Below are positions 282 to 7,330 of a stretch of 7,330 bases of DNA, one piece after another. Below the pieces are notes generated by a model. That model did not search any database and was not told where the DNA came from. It saw only the letters and a program-made list of their open reading frames with translations. This stretch comes from a virus (taxonomy: Duplodnaviria > Heunggongvirae > Uroviricota > Caudoviricetes), in the IMG/VR virus record IMGVR_UViG_2531839195_000014. One strand, given 5' to 3'. How positions within the stretch are numbered: position 1 is the stretch's first letter; each line of letters starts with the position of its first letter. The translations under genes were made by a program, and so were the position numbers.

Positions 282-737
282 CTCAGCATTATATAGTTCT
301 ACTCTGGCGAGATACGTTGGCATATTCATTTCCTTACTGGTTGTGTGAGAACTTCAGTAAAGATACCACCAAAGCCCGGAAGTGGTGAAATAAAACCGGG
401 CACAACACGAAGGCGCATTTCCGGTATCCATAAAGAGTCGGTCTTGTCTGTGAAATTTAAATGGTGGGAGTGCGCTTCCGGTTGTAAATAACGACATTGC
501 TGTGTGAAGTACCAGTTGGCGGCATCGGTTTAATTGCTGGCTGATGTCCGCCCTTTTTAAAGTGAATTTTGTGATGCGGTGAATGCGGCTATGCGCACGC
601 GGCACAGTTAAAAGTCATGTTAGTCCTTATTGGTTTGGGTGGGAAAGCCAACTGTAATTGTTAACTGGTTAACGTCACCTGGAGGCACCAGGCACCGCAT
701 CAACAAAGTTCACTTCGGTGATGAAAGGAAAGAGAAA

Positions 738-938
738 ATGTTGAATGTAGCTATTGAAAACCAGAACGGGTGGAATTATAGTGCACCTGCACCTCATAAA
801 ACGGGTGCCGGGATTGCTACCCCGACGATGACTACTGCGCATAACCGCGCTCAGGCGGTTTTTTATGCGTCAAGCACAGCCACATTCAGATTATGGTGGG
901 GCGTGCAGGGCAGCCGCAAGGCTGGCCGGTTTCGGTAG
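738..938 (+). CDS. small hypothetical ORF (66 aa), coding status uncertain
   Basis: ATG at 738 preceded by AAGGAAAG; same frame as the listed 630-938 ORF, which uses a TTG start. No recognisable motif. Its 3' end overlaps, in another frame, an open stretch leading into the Rha gene. Confidence 0.25.
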   Translation: MLNVAIENQNGWNYSAPAPHKTGAGIATPTMTTAHNRAQAVFYASSTATFRLWWGVQGSRKAGRFR

Positions 939-1030
939 TCACCGGTTGTAGCAACCCTGTGCGTCTCACCACCCATGAGATTGCTACCTCTGGTGGTGAG
1001 TCATTTAAACTGACTATCGAGGCTGCCATC

Positions 1031-1585
1031 ATGGCTACTATCCTTACCCTTTCTCACCCTGACGCAACCATCGAAAATGGTCGCGCTGTCACTACGTCTG
1101 TTGCGGTTGCGGAGTTCTTCCGGAAAATGCACAAAAACGTTATTCAGAAGATCGAAACTCTCGAATGCTCGCCGGAGTTTAACCGGCTTAATTTTAAGCC
1201 CGTCACCTATACCGACGCCAAAGGCGAAAAACGCCCAATGTACCAAATCACCAAAAACGGCTTCGTTTTCCTGGTGATGGGCTTCACTGGCAAAAAAGCC
1301 GCCGCATTCAAGGAAGCCTACATTGCTGAGTTCGACCGCATGGAGGCCGAACTGCGCCAGAATAACACCCCACCTGCAGACAAGATGATTCCGGGTGATG
1401 GTCGCACTCTGGTTGTTCACTTCGACAAATTCGGCAATGTCGAATTCACCGAAACCGTTCCTGATGGCGCACTGGTCTGTACCCTGGAGACTTTCCGGTT
1501 TTATCTGGAAAAACAGGGATGGACTCTTGTTAACCGGGGCGCAATTAAAAATATGACTGTGGAACAATTACTTTCTTTAAAATAA
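1031..1585 (+). CDS. Rha-family phage regulatory protein (antirepressor-like), 184 aa from ATG 1031
   Basis: Protein MATILTLSHPDATIENGRAVTTSVAVAEFFRKMHKNVIQKIETLECSPEFNRLNFKPVTYTDAKGEKRPMYQITKNGFVFLVMGFTGKKAAAFKEAYIAEFDRMEAELRQ has the hallmark Rha-domain pattern (TTS..VAE.F.K.H.NV, LNF, PMY..TK.GF..LVMG.TGKKA..FK.AYI..F..ME) recalled from memory. GAGG lies 9 nt upstream of ATG 1031. The frame is also open from ATG 893, which has no RBS, so the start is uncertain. Confidence 0.75.
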   Translation: MATILTLSHPDATIENGRAVTTSVAVAEFFRKMHKNVIQKIETLECSPEFNRLNFKPVTYTDAKGEKRPMYQITKNGFVFLVMGFTGKKAAAFKEAYIAEFDRMEAELRQNNTPPADKMIPGDGRTLVVHFDKFGNVEFTETVPDGALVCTLETFRFYLEKQGWTLVNRGAIKNMTVEQLLSLK

Positions 1586-1956
1586 AAATGGAGCTACGGA
1601 TATGAACCCTATGCTTGATTATTGTTTTACCTCTGCACCTCAGCAGACCATAACACACACCGGAATCAAAAATTTGTTATGGATAATCAAAAAAACCTCC
1701 AGTAGAAAGGTGATCCCGATTTAATTCCCTGTGCTTATGGCCTGTGTGACAGACAAGTAAGCCCTGATAAGGCTTACACTGCTGAACTTATTTACATGCA
1801 CGGAACCATGATGAGGAAAAAGAAACGCAAATATTGTAGTGAAATCTGCGCCGAAAAAGACCAGATGGCACACGAACTTTAATTAACTGACTATTCGAAA
1901 CTGAATTTATGCCAGCAATGGCAGGGATTCGCTCAACCTTAATTAAGGAGAAAAAC

Positions 1957-2033
1957 ATGAACACCAATTATGAAGCCACTGTTGCAACTACTGATAACAT
2001 TGTTCACGAGGTTTACCTGGAAGGAAAGCATAT
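1957..2033 (+). pseudogene. 5' fragment (first 25 codons) of an 81-codon gene of unknown function, interrupted by IS600-like copy 1
   Basis: Strong RBS AAGGAG (1945-1950), 6-nt spacer, ATG 1957; reads MNTNYEATVATTDNIVHEVYLEGKH and then runs into the IS terminus at 2034. The in-frame continuation is found on the minus strand at 4194-4023. Confidence 0.6.
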
Positions 2034-2097
2034 TGAGGTAGCCTGAGTTTAACGGACACTCCTTCCTGAAATAGAATGGCATCAGAAGGAGCTAATA

Positions 2098-2385
2098 ATG
2101 AGCAGAAAAACCCAACGTTACTCTAAAGAGTTCAAAGCCGAAGCTGTCAGAACGGTTCTTGAAAATCAACTTTCGATCAGTGAAGGCGCTTCCCGATTAT
2201 CCCTTCCTGAAGGCACTTTAGGACAATGGGTTACCGCCGCCAGAAAAGGGCTCGGTACTCCTGGTTCCCGCACGCTGGCTGAACTGGAATCTGAAATTCT
2301 GCAACTGCGTAAGGCGTTAAATGAAGCTCGCCTTGAGCGCGATATATTAAAAAAGCAACAGCGTATTTTGCACAGGAGTCGCTGA
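2098..2385 (+). CDS. IS600-like OrfA (helix-turn-helix transposase subunit), 95 aa
   Basis: Product MSRKTQRYSKEFKAEAVRTVLENQLSISEGASRLSLPEGTLGQWVTAARKG... then a leucine-zipper-like ILQLRKALNEARLERDILKK; RBS GGAG upstream. I recognise this as IS600 ORF1-like. Confidence 0.85.
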   Translation: MSRKTQRYSKEFKAEAVRTVLENQLSISEGASRLSLPEGTLGQWVTAARKGLGTPGSRTLAELESEILQLRKALNEARLERDILKKQQRILHRSR

Positions 2386-2434
2386 AAAATACGCGTTAAT
2401 CGAACAATGGCGACAACAATTTCCCATTGAAGCG

Positions 2435-3226
2435 ATGTGTCAGGTATTTGGTGTATCCAGGAGCGGTTATTACAACTGGGTACAGCATGAACCCTCAGAC
2501 AGAAAACAAAGTGATGAGCGGCTAAAACTGGAGATTAAGGTGGCACATATCCGCACTCGCGAAACATATGGAACCCGGCGGCTCCAGACGGAGCTGGCAG
2601 AGAATGGCATCATCGTTGGTCGTGACCGACTGGCACGTCTTCGTAAGGAGCTGAGGCTACGCTGTAAGCAGAAACGCAAGTTCAGAGCGACTACGAACCC
2701 GAACCACAATCTGCCAGTTGCGCCAAATCTGCTGAACCAGACGTTCGCTCCTACAGCACCAAATCAGGTCTGGGTGGCGGACCTGACGTATGTTGCTGGC
2801 ATCAAAGATGTTTATACGTGCGAAATTGTCGGCTACGCCATGGGAGAGCGCATGACAAAAGAGCTGACAGGTAAAGCCCTGTTTATGGCGCTCAGGAGCC
2901 AGCGCCCACCTGCCGGGCTAATCCACCACTCTGATCGAGGTTCACAGTACTGCGCATACGATTACCGGGTCATACAGGAGCAGTCTGGTCTGAAAACATC
3001 AATGTCGCGTAAAGGTAACTGTTACGACAACGCTCCGATGGAAAGCTTCTGGGGAACGCTGAAAAATGAGAGCCTGAGCCACTATCGTTTTAATAACCGG
3101 GATGAAGCCATCTCAGTAATACGGGAATACATTGAGATTTTCTACAATCGTCAGCGTCGTCACTCTCGTCTGGGGAATATCTCCCCGGCAGCCTTCAGGG
3201 AAAAATATCATCAGATAGCTGCTTAA
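2435..3226 (+). CDS. IS600-like OrfB (DDE transposase catalytic domain), carrying a 27-bp in-frame deletion
   Basis: ATG-initiated ORF; the frame is open from 2351 and is +1 relative to orfA. Contains WVADLTYV...HHSDRGSQY...NAPMESFWGTLKNE, typical of IS3-family DDE/RNase H fold transposases. Lacks the 9 codons TQEGWLYLA that are present in copies 2 and 3. Confidence 0.8.
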   Translation: MCQVFGVSRSGYYNWVQHEPSDRKQSDERLKLEIKVAHIRTRETYGTRRLQTELAENGIIVGRDRLARLRKELRLRCKQKRKFRATTNPNHNLPVAPNLLNQTFAPTAPNQVWVADLTYVAGIKDVYTCEIVGYAMGERMTKELTGKALFMALRSQRPPAGLIHHSDRGSQYCAYDYRVIQEQSGLKTSMSRKGNCYDNAPMESFWGTLKNESLSHYRFNNRDEAISVIREYIEIFYNRQRRHSRLGNISPAAFREKYHQIAA

Positions 3227-3250
3227 AAAAAGAACAAATGGTAGTGTCCG

Positions 3251-3895
3251 CTATTGCCAGTACACCTCAGCCTTAATTGCATCAGTCAGGCGGAGCAGGG
3301 CGGCATTATCCAGAGTTGTCGGTTCTGCCATGCCGCGTATGGCCAACAGCAGATTCTGGACATAGCTGTTTTCCTGATCCATCTCAAGAGCAGTAATGTG
3401 TTTGCGTTGTTCACGGGTGGCATGATGCAGGTATTTCAGATCCCCGGCAGCATACGTAAAAATGTGCAGAAGACGCTGTGTGAACCGCAAAGTGGCTACA
3501 GAGACTTCGCAATCCTGGCAATCCTCGTGGGCGTCTGCCTGCGCGTTTTCTTCCTGGCCTCCCGCCAGTTCTTTGGTTTCTTGAGCATTATCCTGGTGGT
3601 GAACGTCGTCTGGCGCTGCTCCCGGTTTTAGTTCCCATGTCATGGAGTCTTTGCTGAGTTGATAGCGTTCACTCCAGGTAAAATCGATCTCACCTTCAGG
3701 GGGAAGGTCATTAACGACAGGAAAATTTGTGGCAACAGCTTTAAAATAGTTGCTCAGTTTTTTACCTGACTTAACGAGCAGATAGTCCAGAGTGGTGCTG
3801 GTCGATTCAAAATCGTCGCTTGCCCACAGGACGACGTCAGGTTCACCGGATGATTTTTTCGCTTTCCGTAACAGGAAGAGTGGTTTTGTGCTCAT
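3251..3895 (-). CDS. hypothetical protein, about 208 native codons, 3'-truncated and fused to 5 IS-derived codons plus stop
   Basis: Long minus-strand ORF; ATG at rc 3893-3895 with GAGG 9 nt upstream (the listed ORF starts at TTG 3910). The protein has an N-terminal region, an acidic D/E/Q-rich linker ([32 protein letters not shown]) and a C-terminal region. The frame runs through the IS copy 1 junction at 3269/3270, so the last codons (EVYWQ, stop at 3251-3253) are IS sequence. I do not recognise a family. Confidence 0.5.
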
Positions 3896-3964
3896 TGTTT
3901 TTAACCTCAACTCAGATTAAAATTACTGCGAGTGATGAATAAATGTCCCAGGTTCTTCACTCAG

Positions 3965-3995
3965 GCCTGCACACTGTGCAGGCTTTCTTTTTTTC
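3965..3995 (+). terminator. Rho-independent terminator-like hairpin (plus strand)
   Basis: GCCTGCAC (3965-3972), loop ACT, GTGCAGGC (3976-3983), followed by TTTCTTTTTTTC (3984-3995). On the minus strand the stem is followed by no U-tract, so it is directional. Confidence 0.5.
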
Positions 3996-4022
3996 AGATT
4001 TCACCTTTTAATTTCATTGCAA

Positions 4023-4194
4023 TCAGATTTGCCAGAAATTCGGCTTTTTTTCTGCGGGCAGATTATTTCCGATGTAAACTAGGCACATTTTTGTGGCACC
4101 TTCAACAAGAGTTTTAAAGTTTCCTGATAGACCGTCGATATCAACTACAGTGAATGGGGTTTCTTTATTTTCTGTTTTAATTACGTAGCCAATA
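4023..4194 (-). pseudogene. 3' fragment (last 56 codons plus stop) of the 81-codon gene begun at 1957-2033
   Basis: Minus-strand frame reads (H)IGYVIKTENKETPFTVVDIDGLSGNFKTLVEGATKMCLVYIGNNLPAEKKPNFWQI then stop. Joining 1957-2033 to rc(4194-4023) restores an uninterrupted frame (…AAG CAT ATT GGC TAC…) with a shared TAT triplet at both junctions. The listed ORF 4023-4226 owes its first 11 codons to the IS terminus. Confidence 0.6.
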
Positions 4195-4237
4195 TGAGGT
4201 GTACTGGCAATAGCGGACACTACCATTTGTTCTTTTT

Positions 4238-5055
4238 TTAAGCAGCCATCTGATGATATTTTTCCCTGAAGGCTGCCGGGGAGATATTCCCCAGACGAGA
4301 GTGACGACGCTGACGATTGTAGAAAATCTCAATGTATTCCCGTATTACTGAGATGGCTTCATCCCGGTTATTAAAACGATAGTGGCTCAGGCTCTCATTT
4401 TTCAGCGTTCCCCAGAAGCTTTCCATCGGAGCGTTGTCGTAACAGTTACCTTTACGCGACATTGATGTTTTCAGACCAGACTGCTCCTGTATGACCCGGT
4501 AATCGTATGCGCAGTACTGTGAACCTCGATCAGAGTGGTGGATTAGCCCGGCAGGTGGGCGCTGGCTCCTGAGCGCCTTAAACAGGGCTTTACCTGTCAG
4601 CTCTTTTGTCATGCGCTCTCCCATGGCGTAGCCGACAATTTCGCACGTATAAACATCTTTGATGCCAGCGAGGTACAACCATCCCTCCTGTGTGGCAACA
4701 TACGTCAGGTCCGCCACCCAGACCTGATTTGGTGCTGTAGGAGCGAACGTCTGGTTCAGCAGATTTGGCGCAACTGGCAGATTGTGGTTCGGGTTCGTAG
4801 TCGCTCTGAACTTGCGTTTCTGCTTACAGCGTAGCCTCAGCTCCTTACGAAGACGTGCCAGTCGGTCACGACCAACGATGATGCCATTCTCTGCCAGCTC
4901 CGTCTGGAGCCGCCGGGTTCCATATGTTTCGCGAGTGCGGATATGTGCCACCTTAATCTCCAGTTTTAGCCGCTCATCACTTGTTTTCTGTCTGAGGGTT
5001 CATGCTGTACCCAGTTGTAATAACCGCTCCTGGATACACCAAATACCTGACACAT
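4238..5055 (-). pseudogene. IS600-like orfB, copy 2, frameshifted by a 1-bp deletion
   Basis: Copy 2 has TT at 4981-4982 where copies 1 and 3 have TTT (sense strand AAA to AA). Sense reading becomes ...RKQVMSG-stop shortly after the orfB start; the downstream catalytic region (4238-4951) is intact but out of frame. Confidence 0.8.
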
Positions 5056-5104
5056 CGCTTCAATGGGAAATTGTTGTCGCCATTGTTCGATTAACGCGTA
5101 TTTT

Positions 5105-5392
5105 TCAGCGACTCCTGTGCAAAATACGCTGTTGCTTTTTTAATATATCGCGCTCAAGGCGAGCTTCATTTAACGCCTTACGCAGTTGCAGAATTTCAGA
5201 TTCCAGTTCAGCCACCGTGCGGGAACCAGGAGTACCGAGCCCTTTTCTGGCGGCGGTAACCCATTGTCCTAAAGTGCCTTCAGGAAGGGATAATCGGGAA
5301 GCGCCTTCACTGATCGAAAGTTGATTTTCAAGAACCGTTCTGACAGCTTCGGCTTTGAACTCTTTAGAGTAACGTTGGGTTTTTCTGCTCAT
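5105..5392 (-). CDS. IS600-like OrfA, copy 2 (95 aa)
   Basis: Identical to copy 1 OrfA except L60V (…GSRTVAELE…). Confidence 0.85.
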   Translation of the reverse strand: MSRKTQRYSKEFKAEAVRTVLENQLSISEGASRLSLPEGTLGQWVTAARKGLGTPGSRTVAELESEILQLRKALNEARLERDILKKQQRILHRSR

Positions 5393-5456
5393 TATTAGCT
5401 CCTTCTGATGCCATTCTATTTCAGGAAGGAGTGTCCGTTAAACTCAGGCTACCTCA

Positions 5457-6228
5457 ATTCCCCAGACGAGAGTGACGACGCTGACGATTGTAGAAAATCT
5501 CAATGTATTCCCGTATTACTGAGATGGCTTCATCCCGGTTATTAAAACGATAGTGGCTCAGGCTCTCATTTTTCAGCGTTCCCCAGAAGCTTTCCATCGG
5601 AGCGTTGTCGTAACAGTTACCTTTACGCGACATTGATGTTTTCAGACCAGACTGCTCCTGTATGACCCGGTAATCGTATGCGCAGTACTGTGAACCTCGA
5701 TCAGAGTGGTGGATTAGCCCGGCAGGTGGGCGCTGGCTCCTGAGCGCCATAAACAGGGCTTTACCTGTCAGCTCTTTTGTCATGCGCTCTCCCATGGCGT
5801 AGCCGACAATTTCGCACGTATAAACATCTTTGATGCCAGCGAGGTACAACCATCCCTCCTGTGTGGCAACATACGTCAGGTCCGCCACCCAGACCTGATT
5901 TGGTGCTGTAGGAGCGAACGTCTGGTTCAGCAGATTTGGCGCAACTGGCAGATTGTGTGTTCGGGTTCGTAGTCGCTCTGAACTTGCGTTTCTGCTTACA
6001 GCGTAGCCTCAGCTCCTTACGAAGACGTGCCAGTCGGTCACGACCAACGATGATGCCATTCTCTGCCAGCTCCGTCTGGAGCCGCCGGGTTCCATATGTT
6101 TCGCGAGTGCGGATATGTGCCACCTTAATCTCCAGTTTTAACCGCTCATCACTTTGTTTTCTGTCTGAGGGTTCATGCTGTACCCAGTTGTAATAACCGC
6201 TCCTGGATACACCAAATACCTGACACAT
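5457..6228 (-). pseudogene. IS600-like orfB, copy 3, 1-bp insertion frameshift and 3' truncation
   Basis: Extra T at 5958 (GATTGTGTGTTCGGG versus GATTGTGGTTCGGG in copy 2) shifts the frame after ...RATTNPN. The 3' end is cut at 5457, and the listed ORF 5454-5888 terminates in copy 2 IRL sequence. Confidence 0.8.
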
Positions 6229-6277
6229 CGCTTCAATGGGAAATTGTTGTCGCCATTGTTCGATTAACGCGTATTTT

Positions 6278-6565
6278 TCAGCGACTCCTGTGCAAAATAC
6301 GCTGTTGCTTTTTTAATATATCGCGCTCAAGGCGAGCTTCATTTAACGCCTTACGCAGTTGCAGAATTTCAGATTCCAGTTCAGCCACCGTGCGGGAACC
6401 AGGAGTACCGAGCCCTTTTCTGGCGGCGGTAACCCATTGTCCTAAAGTGCCTTCAGGAAGGGATAATCGGGAAGCGCCTTCACTGATCGAAAGTTGATTT
6501 TCAAGAACCGTTCTGACAGCTTCGGCTTTGAACTCTTTAGAGTAACGTTGGGTTTTTCTGCTCAT
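6278..6565 (-). CDS. IS600-like OrfA, copy 3 (95 aa)
   Basis: Protein identical to copy 2 OrfA. Confidence 0.85.
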   Translation of the reverse strand: MSRKTQRYSKEFKAEAVRTVLENQLSISEGASRLSLPEGTLGQWVTAARKGLGTPGSRTVAELESEILQLRKALNEARLERDILKKQQRILHRSR

Positions 6566-6869
6566 TATTAGCTCCTTCTGATGCCATTTTATTTCAGGAA
6601 GGAGTGTCCGTTAAACTCAGGCTACCTCACATGTCTCTGGCGCAATGCCCGGGCTTTTTATTCGCACATCGTGAGGAATGCACCGTGGAAATTAAAAAAT
6701 CATTAATCCCCGTTATACCGAAAGTGGCGCAGTAGACTGTGACGTTTTTTTTGACGACAGGGACCAGGCAGTCCCCTACACAGCCACCGCTGATGATGTC
6801 GCACCGACGGGTCAGCGAATCTGGCAGGAACTGCAAAGTGGCAAATGGGGTGAGATAGCCCCATTCACT

Positions 6870-7247
6870 GTGACACCAGAAATGCTGGAAGCGGCCAGAG
6901 AGGCCAGACGTCAGGAAATTGAAGCATGGCGCACAGAACAGGAGGCGAAGCCGTTCACGTTTGAATGGAACGGTCGTATCTGGAATGCTGGCCCCAACTC
7001 ACTGGGCCGCCTTTATCCGGTGGTAATGGCTGCGAAATCCGACATTGTACGGGACGTGATGACGTGGGGTGATGCCGATAATCAGCAGGTGAAACTGTCG
7101 ATGCCGGAACTGGAAGAACTGGCGGCAGCAATGGTGCAGGCGCAGGTCGATCGCAACGATGAGATTTATCGCCGTCAGCGTGAAATGAAAGAGGAGCTGA
7201 GCGGTCTGGATGATTTGGCTTCAATTCGGGCGTTTGACGTTGAGTAA
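6870..7247 (+). CDS. phage tail-associated DUF4376-like protein (tail-fibre-assembly-like region); 5' end disrupted or uncertain
   Basis: Product …EMLEAAREARRQEIEAWRTEQEA…MTWGDADNQQVKLSMPELEELAAAMVQAQVDRNDEIYRRQREMKEELSGLDDLASIRAFDVE resembles, from memory, the DUF4376 family found beside prophage tail-fibre genes. The frame is open upstream to 6696 with coding-like sequence but no start codon or RBS before GTG 6870 / ATG 6882. The stop overlaps the next start (TAATG). Confidence 0.45.
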   Translation: MTPEMLEAAREARRQEIEAWRTEQEAKPFTFEWNGRIWNAGPNSLGRLYPVVMAAKSDIVRDVMTWGDADNQQVKLSMPELEELAAAMVQAQVDRNDEIYRRQREMKEELSGLDDLASIRAFDVE

Positions 7248-7330
7248 TGAATAAGCCGCAACTGGCGGAATCACAGAAGACCGCTTTGCTTACCGAAGCG
7301 GAGTCTGTCATCCGGCCGCCGGGGCGTGCT
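7247..7330 (+). CDS. hypothetical protein, N-terminal 28 codons, partial (continues beyond the window)
   Basis: ATG 7247 overlaps the upstream stop codon (TAATG), suggesting translational coupling; reads MNKPQLAESQKTALLTEAESVIRPPGRA to the window edge. Not in the ORF track because of the window end. Confidence 0.3.
   Translation, partial: MNKPQLAESQKTALLTEAESVIRPPGRA

Follow-up and report, generated by a model that had tools for sequence, protein, structure and literature searches.

The closest described systems are the Rac prophage of Escherichia coli K-12, with the gene order kilR-ydaE-racC-recE-recT-ralR-...-xisR-intR, and the corresponding locus of E. coli A30, with the order sieB-Rha-YdaE-RacC(91 aa)-recE(1047 aa)-recT-ralR-xis-int. 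Full-length RecE of both K-12 and A30 combines an N-terminal PF06630 region with a C-terminal PDDEXK nuclease domain (PF12684). The protein is known from the literature as a 5'->3' dsDNA exonuclease that acts in recombination with its partner, the annealase RecT, and its C-terminal domain (residues 564-866) is reported to be genetically sufficient; the N-terminal domain boosts linear-linear recombination (PMC11611040). RecE also degrades mature retron msDNA and thereby frees the toxin RcaT (Bobonis et al., bioRxiv 10.1101/2020.06.22.160242). It thus triggers the retron-Sen2/Eco9 toxin-antitoxin systems, and RacC blocks the toxin RcaT (bioRxiv 10.1101/2020.06.22.160242; PMC11951105). RacC of K-12 was the strongest RcaT blocker and was active on retron-Eco9 too (bioRxiv 10.1101/2020.06.22.160242). 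The retron trigger and blocker work is summarised with a 2022 citation in PMC11951105.

The window analysed here is a stretch of 7,330 nucleotides. We are highly confident that its central region is the decayed early (recombination) operon of a Rac-like lambdoid prophage from a genome of the Shigella flexneri type, broken by IS600 and by an inversion. Shigella genomes are characterised by inversions flanked by insertion sequences (IS) and by IS-driven formation of pseudogenes. An earlier note on this DNA had read the two genes concerned as a disrupted accessory cassette of unknown function, composed of an 81-codon gene and a gene of roughly 208 codons.

Insertion sequences, namely the end of an IS2 and three copies of IS600, make up the bulk of the window. 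The IS2 end (1 to ~282, minus strand) was recognised from the first 63 codons of orfA, which match 'IS2 repressor TnpA' (E=1e-40). IS600 copy A (2034-3269, plus strand), a member of the IS3 family, was delimited from the inverted-repeat map and the NCBIfam transpos_IS3 match. Copy B (4195-5456, minus strand) is inverted relative to copy A and is its partner in the inversion; between the two lies a unique segment of 925 bp (3270-4194). The feature described in the earlier note had been started at position 3251, 19 nt within copy A; the segment itself begins at 3270. A partial copy C (5457-6629, minus strand) is short of 91 nt at the IRR end and adjoins the left end of copy B without a gap. The elements match NCBIfam transpos_IS3 with 293 bits, have the ends TGAGGTAGCC... 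and TGAGGTGTAC..., and show the two-ORF IS3-type transposase, the terminal inverted repeats and the 3-bp target duplication of IS600. The same element is labelled 'IS3-like element IS600 family transposase' by PGAP in the relatives. The transposase ORF of copy A carries a 27-nt in-frame deletion (2788-2796) with loss of 'TQEGWLYLA', which is present neither in copies B and C nor in copy A of S. flexneri SFBU1023.

Beyond the last IS600 lies a prophage tail-fibre N-terminal domain / DUF4376 region (6630-7330, plus strand; PF14301 E=8e-17). The best match of this right flank in E. coli FDAARGOS_944 is located ~3.8 Mb from the racC-recE prophage of that genome; pieces of two separate prophage regions have thus been brought together by IS600, and the tail-fibre flank points to a further IS600-mediated rearrangement. 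A tRNA scan of the window yielded no tRNA.

The larger ORF of the unique segment (3270-3895, minus strand; 208 codons plus 2 nt) starts with an ATG at 3895 and is interrupted at 3269/3270 by the end of IS600. The frame continues into IS600 for five IS-encoded codons and ends with a stop at 3251-3253 (213 aa). Its product matched Pfam PF06630 over the whole profile (residues 2-182 vs 1-203/203; E=2.8e-67; 227 bits, cutoff 25), phrog_607 (E=7e-75, positions 7-213 of 883) and NCBIfam PRK09709 (E=6e-58, 196.7 bits, profile positions 1-188 of 877), all of which are RecE families. The score of a full-length RecE equivalog was not reached (196.7 bits vs the PRK09709 cutoff of 1269). Regarding the comparison with K-12 RecE, the identity was 83% over residues 1-117 (BLASTP), whereas residues 118-208 do not align. 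They form a variable segment, still within the PF06630 profile, which also occurs in RecE of FDAARGOS_944 and E. coli A30; over its 208 aa the fragment differs by a single residue from the start of the 652-aa ORF of FDAARGOS_944. On the strength of these matches, the 208-codon ORF is best taken as the 5' end of recE (exodeoxyribonuclease VIII), that is, as a gene fragment and not as a functional family member. Measured against the RecE ORFs of the relatives (1047, 866 and 652 aa) it amounts to 20-32%, so that a gene of about 208 codons, as proposed in the earlier note, does not exist at this place.

The catalytic part of RecE, the C-terminal PD-(D/E)XK domain (PF12684; K-12 residues ~564-866), is absent from the fragment, and in all ~75% of the recE length is missing, catalytic domain included. 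A search for the remainder throughout the window, including the part beyond the last IS600, gave no further RecE sequence and found the tail-fibre/DUF4376 region instead. There is likewise no recT in the window: the end of the recE fragment abuts IS600, whereas recT follows recE in K-12 and A30. The strongly acidic linker that had been described for the larger protein is present (12 acidic residues and one basic residue between positions 93 and 130), and the 'two-part architecture' built on it consists of the conserved first ~100 residues of RecE and the start of its variable middle region.

The smaller gene is now found in two pieces. Its 5' part (1957-2033, plus strand; codons 1-25 plus 2 nt), placed by reconstruction, ends with one copy of the IS600 target duplication (TAT, 2031-2033), and its 3' part (3994-4194, minus strand), placed by alignment with K-12 and FDAARGOS_944, carries the second copy at 4192-4194. 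The left flank ends in ...GCATAT at 2033, and the reverse complement of the right end of the segment starts with TATTGGC..., the 3' part of the small ORF being read 4194->4023 on the minus strand. When positions 1957-2033 are joined to the reverse complement of 4191->4023, with one TAT dropped, an in-frame ORF of 81 codons results. Its product has 81% identity to K-12 RacC over 79 residues (BLASTP) and matches phrog_4778 (E=2.8e-42). In the DNA alignment a run of seven A (4045-4051) corresponds to a run of eight in K-12; the frame of racC is therefore shifted, and the stop is located at 4023-4025 (81 codons) and not at ~3994 (91 codons). The frameshift is common to FDAARGOS_944, and PGAP marks the homologue as 'frameshifted'. 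Against NF007306 (PRK09790), a profile of the 91-aa family with a curated cutoff of 171 bits, the 81-aa ORF as encoded scored 140 bits and K-12 RacC 206 bits. The frameshift-repaired protein of 91 aa covered the profile completely (1-91/91, E=1.2e-50) with 169.7 bits, which is 1.3 under the cutoff and marks it as a slightly divergent member of the family. After reconstruction the gene order is ydaE-racC-recE as in K-12, A30 and FDAARGOS_944. By homology and position, the 81-codon ORF is thus identified as racC. Of the 81-codon gene postulated earlier, the in-frame ORF could be restored as such; what it represents is a frameshifted racC of 91 codons. The gene is split by IS600 at codon 26, and its halves now lie on opposite strands, ~2.2 kb apart.

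Between racC and recE there is a spacer (3896-3993, minus strand), the K-12 counterpart of which has 101 nt. From the stop of the 81-codon ORF to the next ATG (3895) the distance is 127 nt, in good agreement with the 130 bp estimated before. The spacer holds a GC-rich hairpin of 10 bp followed by a T-run (3963-3985), as read on the plus strand. In the native orientation of the operon, this structure would be a terminator antisense to racC-recE and not one of the operon itself.

Flipping of the segment and removal of one IS600 together with 3 bp (TAT) restored the 81-codon ORF followed by the truncated ORF. The rebuilt DNA (window positions 283-2033 plus the flipped segment) was compared with E. 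coli FDAARGOS_944 and matched in a single collinear piece with about 99.2-99.4% identity. Only 22 positions differ, none of them at the join, and the inversion and the IS insertion are therefore real. The earlier suggestion that the two genes had been co-directional neighbours before the inversion is borne out by the reconstruction and by this collinear match. One TAT (2031-2033) flanks copy A on its outer side and the other (4192-4194) flanks copy B on its inner side, as predicted for an inversion. In the complete chromosomes of S. flexneri SFBU1023 and of ECMA0423, the latter being recorded as an E. coli strain, the IS600/recE' junction is exactly the same and the order is likewise inverted. 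The arrangement is therefore fixed in a Shigella lineage and does not result from faulty assembly.

Directly upstream of the Rha-family gene (1031-1585, plus strand; PF09669 E=3e-31) two RNAs lie back to back, isrK (789-865, plus strand; Rfam 56.6 bits, gathering score 50) and a C4 antisense RNA (889-976, plus strand; Rfam 75.7 bits, gathering score 45). The setting on which the earlier note had relied, in a prophage and downstream of a Rha-family regulator, is real. We take the isrK-C4-Rha layout to resemble immI of P1 (c4-icd-ant) and isrK-anrP of Gifsy-1; if this likeness holds, the 'Rha regulator' would be an RNA-controlled antirepressor. In the relatives, the 'Rha' CDS annotated by PGAP has 849 nt and spans both the isrK and the C4 RNA; in the window, a 1-nt indel at 858, within isrK, closes this long ORF. 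The next gene, ydaE, is a pseudogene (1602-1882, plus strand). Its 3' part matches NCBIfam NF041288 (YdaE_coli, E=2.6e-25), both halves match phrog_6751, and compared with the intact 93-aa gene of FDAARGOS_944 it has lost 1 nt near 1695 and carries TAG instead of CAG at 1703.

Further to the left, a weak DicF-like match (503-553, plus strand) reached 28.6 bits, the gathering score being 48. In E. coli A30 a dicB fragment is annotated upstream of Rha (4626-4700 of the A30 locus), at the place corresponding to this match. The DicF-like sequence may stem from the decay of dicF-dicB; to its left, the prophage region is cut off by the IS2 end. An Rfam match to snoZ221 (3731-3824, minus strand) was rejected as a chance hit, as its 26 bits fall short of the gathering score (44), the family is one of eukaryotic snoRNAs and the match lies inside the recE coding sequence.

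The gene order of A30 is kept in the window as far as codon 208 of recE, and Rha-ydaE-racC-recE(-recT) is an early operon of the Rac type. The gene racC was present in 1724 of 5426 complete E. coli genomes, and in 1674 of these 1724 it was collinear with the spacer and the 5' part of recE; since the surveyed genomes are closely related, these counts stand for stable linkage and not for independent co-evolution. Conserved co-occurrence of the two genes, a matter that the earlier note had left to gene-neighbourhood analysis, is thereby confirmed. Regarding phages, racC occurred in six records, four of which annotate 'protein RacC'. In FDAARGOS_944 (region 7330-9562 of the locus) the recE ORF encodes 652 aa with PF06630 and without the PF12684 nuclease domain; it overlaps the start of a Gam-family gene, which is followed by an AAA ATPase. 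The recE/gam boundary of that genome is a mosaic junction, by which the nuclease-recT portion has been replaced. Because recE of FDAARGOS_944 is already nuclease-less, the ancestor of the window may never have had a functional RecE/RecT pair, and RecE function may have been gone from the lineage by the time IS600 arrived.

For the decay of this Rac-type operon we infer the following order of events. A 1-nt deletion in the A8 run of racC, the lesion common to the closest E. coli relative, would have come first. IS600 would then have inserted into codon 26 of racC with duplication of 3 bp (TAT), and a second IS600, in opposite orientation, would have come to lie in recE after codon 208; everything downstream, including the PDDEXK nuclease domain and recT, would have been lost. 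Finally, homologous recombination between the two inverted IS600 copies would have flipped the 925-bp segment. Intramolecular transposition could in principle have produced the inversion instead of homologous recombination, and the flanks do not discriminate between these mechanisms.

Judging from the reading frames, the locus is non-functional, since racC is split and frameshifted and recE is without its catalytic domain; neither RacC nor RecE can be made intact in the window. In this respect the earlier note, which held both genes to be broken, was right. Blocking of RcaT by the racC copy of the window is not expected, because this copy is split and frameshifted.

It might be argued that the N-terminal PF06630 region of RecE forms a nuclease-independent module with RacC, and that the 213-aa product keeps some activity, perhaps via outward transcription from IS600. 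The PF06630 domain is indeed highly conserved (83% to K-12 over residues 1-117), the N-terminal domain enhances linear-linear recombination (PMC11611040), and a nuclease-less RecE ORF of 652 aa is still open in FDAARGOS_944. Against this, the pair cannot act together here with racC split and frameshifted, no sigma-70-like promoter was predicted in the segment 3270-4194, the fragment ends inside the variable region, ~440 residues short of the nuclease-less relative, and PGAP treats such copies as pseudogenes. The adjoining ydaE is decayed too, which fits a general erosion of the region, and we regard retained activity of the product as very unlikely. Little more than a slim chance is given to the broader proposal that the PF06630 region is a separable module which takes part, with RacC, in phage counter-defence, and that nuclease-less RecE ORFs, perhaps including the 213-aa stub, have been retained for this purpose.

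Still less probable, to the point of being scarcely tenable, is the original proposal of an undescribed two-gene prophage accessory system (defence, exclusion or toxin-antitoxin) made of proteins of 81 aa and ~208 aa. The prophage setting downstream of the antirepressor module is real and the pair is tightly linked across genomes. A PDB sequence search with the repaired RacC and the recE fragment gave matches at chance level (E at least 0.26), so that neither part has a homologue of solved structure. However, the larger ORF is the 5' fragment of a recombination exonuclease of 866-1047 aa, and both proteins belong to named families (PF06630, phrog_607 and PRK09709 for RecE; NF007306 and phrog_4778 for RacC), contrary to the statement that neither matched a family that could be named. 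Confident homology of both to ordinary prophage proteins, which the earlier note itself had counted as evidence against a new system, is thus what was found. A PADLOC scan (PADLOC-DB) of both proteins returned no matches at E<=1, and a role as components of a known defence system was accordingly rejected as well. Moreover, publications already exist on the racC-recE pair and its connection with retron defence, the two genes having been described as linked retron blocker and trigger, and there is nothing new in this. The terms 'unknown function' and 'undescribed system' do not apply to this known pair. What holds of the idea of an accessory defence pair is the linkage and the published retron role; the pair had already been named and studied, and in the window it is non-functional.

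That the arrangement is an assembly artefact of collapsed or misjoined IS600 repeats is suggested by three near-identical IS600 copies within 4.6 kb and by the odd partial tandem copy C (5457-6629), which is missing from two other genomes, but it can practically be dismissed in view of the same IS600/recE' junction and order in two independent complete chromosomes (SFBU1023 and ECMA0423) and of the TAT duplication placed as an inversion predicts. At the place of copies B and C, both S. flexneri SFBU1023 and ECMA0423 have a single IS600 and no copy C. The partial tandem copy of 1173 nt is specific to the strain and stems either from an insertion of IS into IS followed by a deletion or from an assembly problem, and doubt about the assembly is confined to this extra copy.

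The analysis of the decayed Rac-type operon removes a false lead, as the supposed undescribed system is the textbook racC-recE locus, wrecked by IS600 in the manner typical for Shigella. It adds a further case of a prophage eroded by insertion sequences, here with four separate lesions within ~2 kb of native DNA, and illustrates that the 5' fragment of a gene can pass for a small two-domain gene if it is read without homology tools.

Among the known systems, the Rac prophage of K-12 has racC (b1351, 91 aa) in the same place between ydaE and recE; the copy in the window differs from it in being frameshifted, with an altered and shorter C-terminus, and in being split by IS600. The recE gene of K-12 (b1350, 866 aa) likewise occupies the same place directly 3' of racC, with a spacer of ~100 nt, whereas the copy in the window comprises codons 1-208 only, is inverted and is fused to an IS600 end. 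The closest intact relative is the Rac-like prophage of E. coli FDAARGOS_944 (NZ_CP065613.1) at ybhA/modC, which has the identical order Rha-ydaE-racC-recE'; it differs from the window in having no IS600 in racC or recE, no inversion and an intact ydaE. The IS-flanked inversions of Shigella show the same inverted IS600 pair, the same redistributed target duplication and the decay of several neighbouring prophage genes. Compared with this general pattern, nothing in the window is unusual except the extra partial tandem copy C, which is strain-specific.
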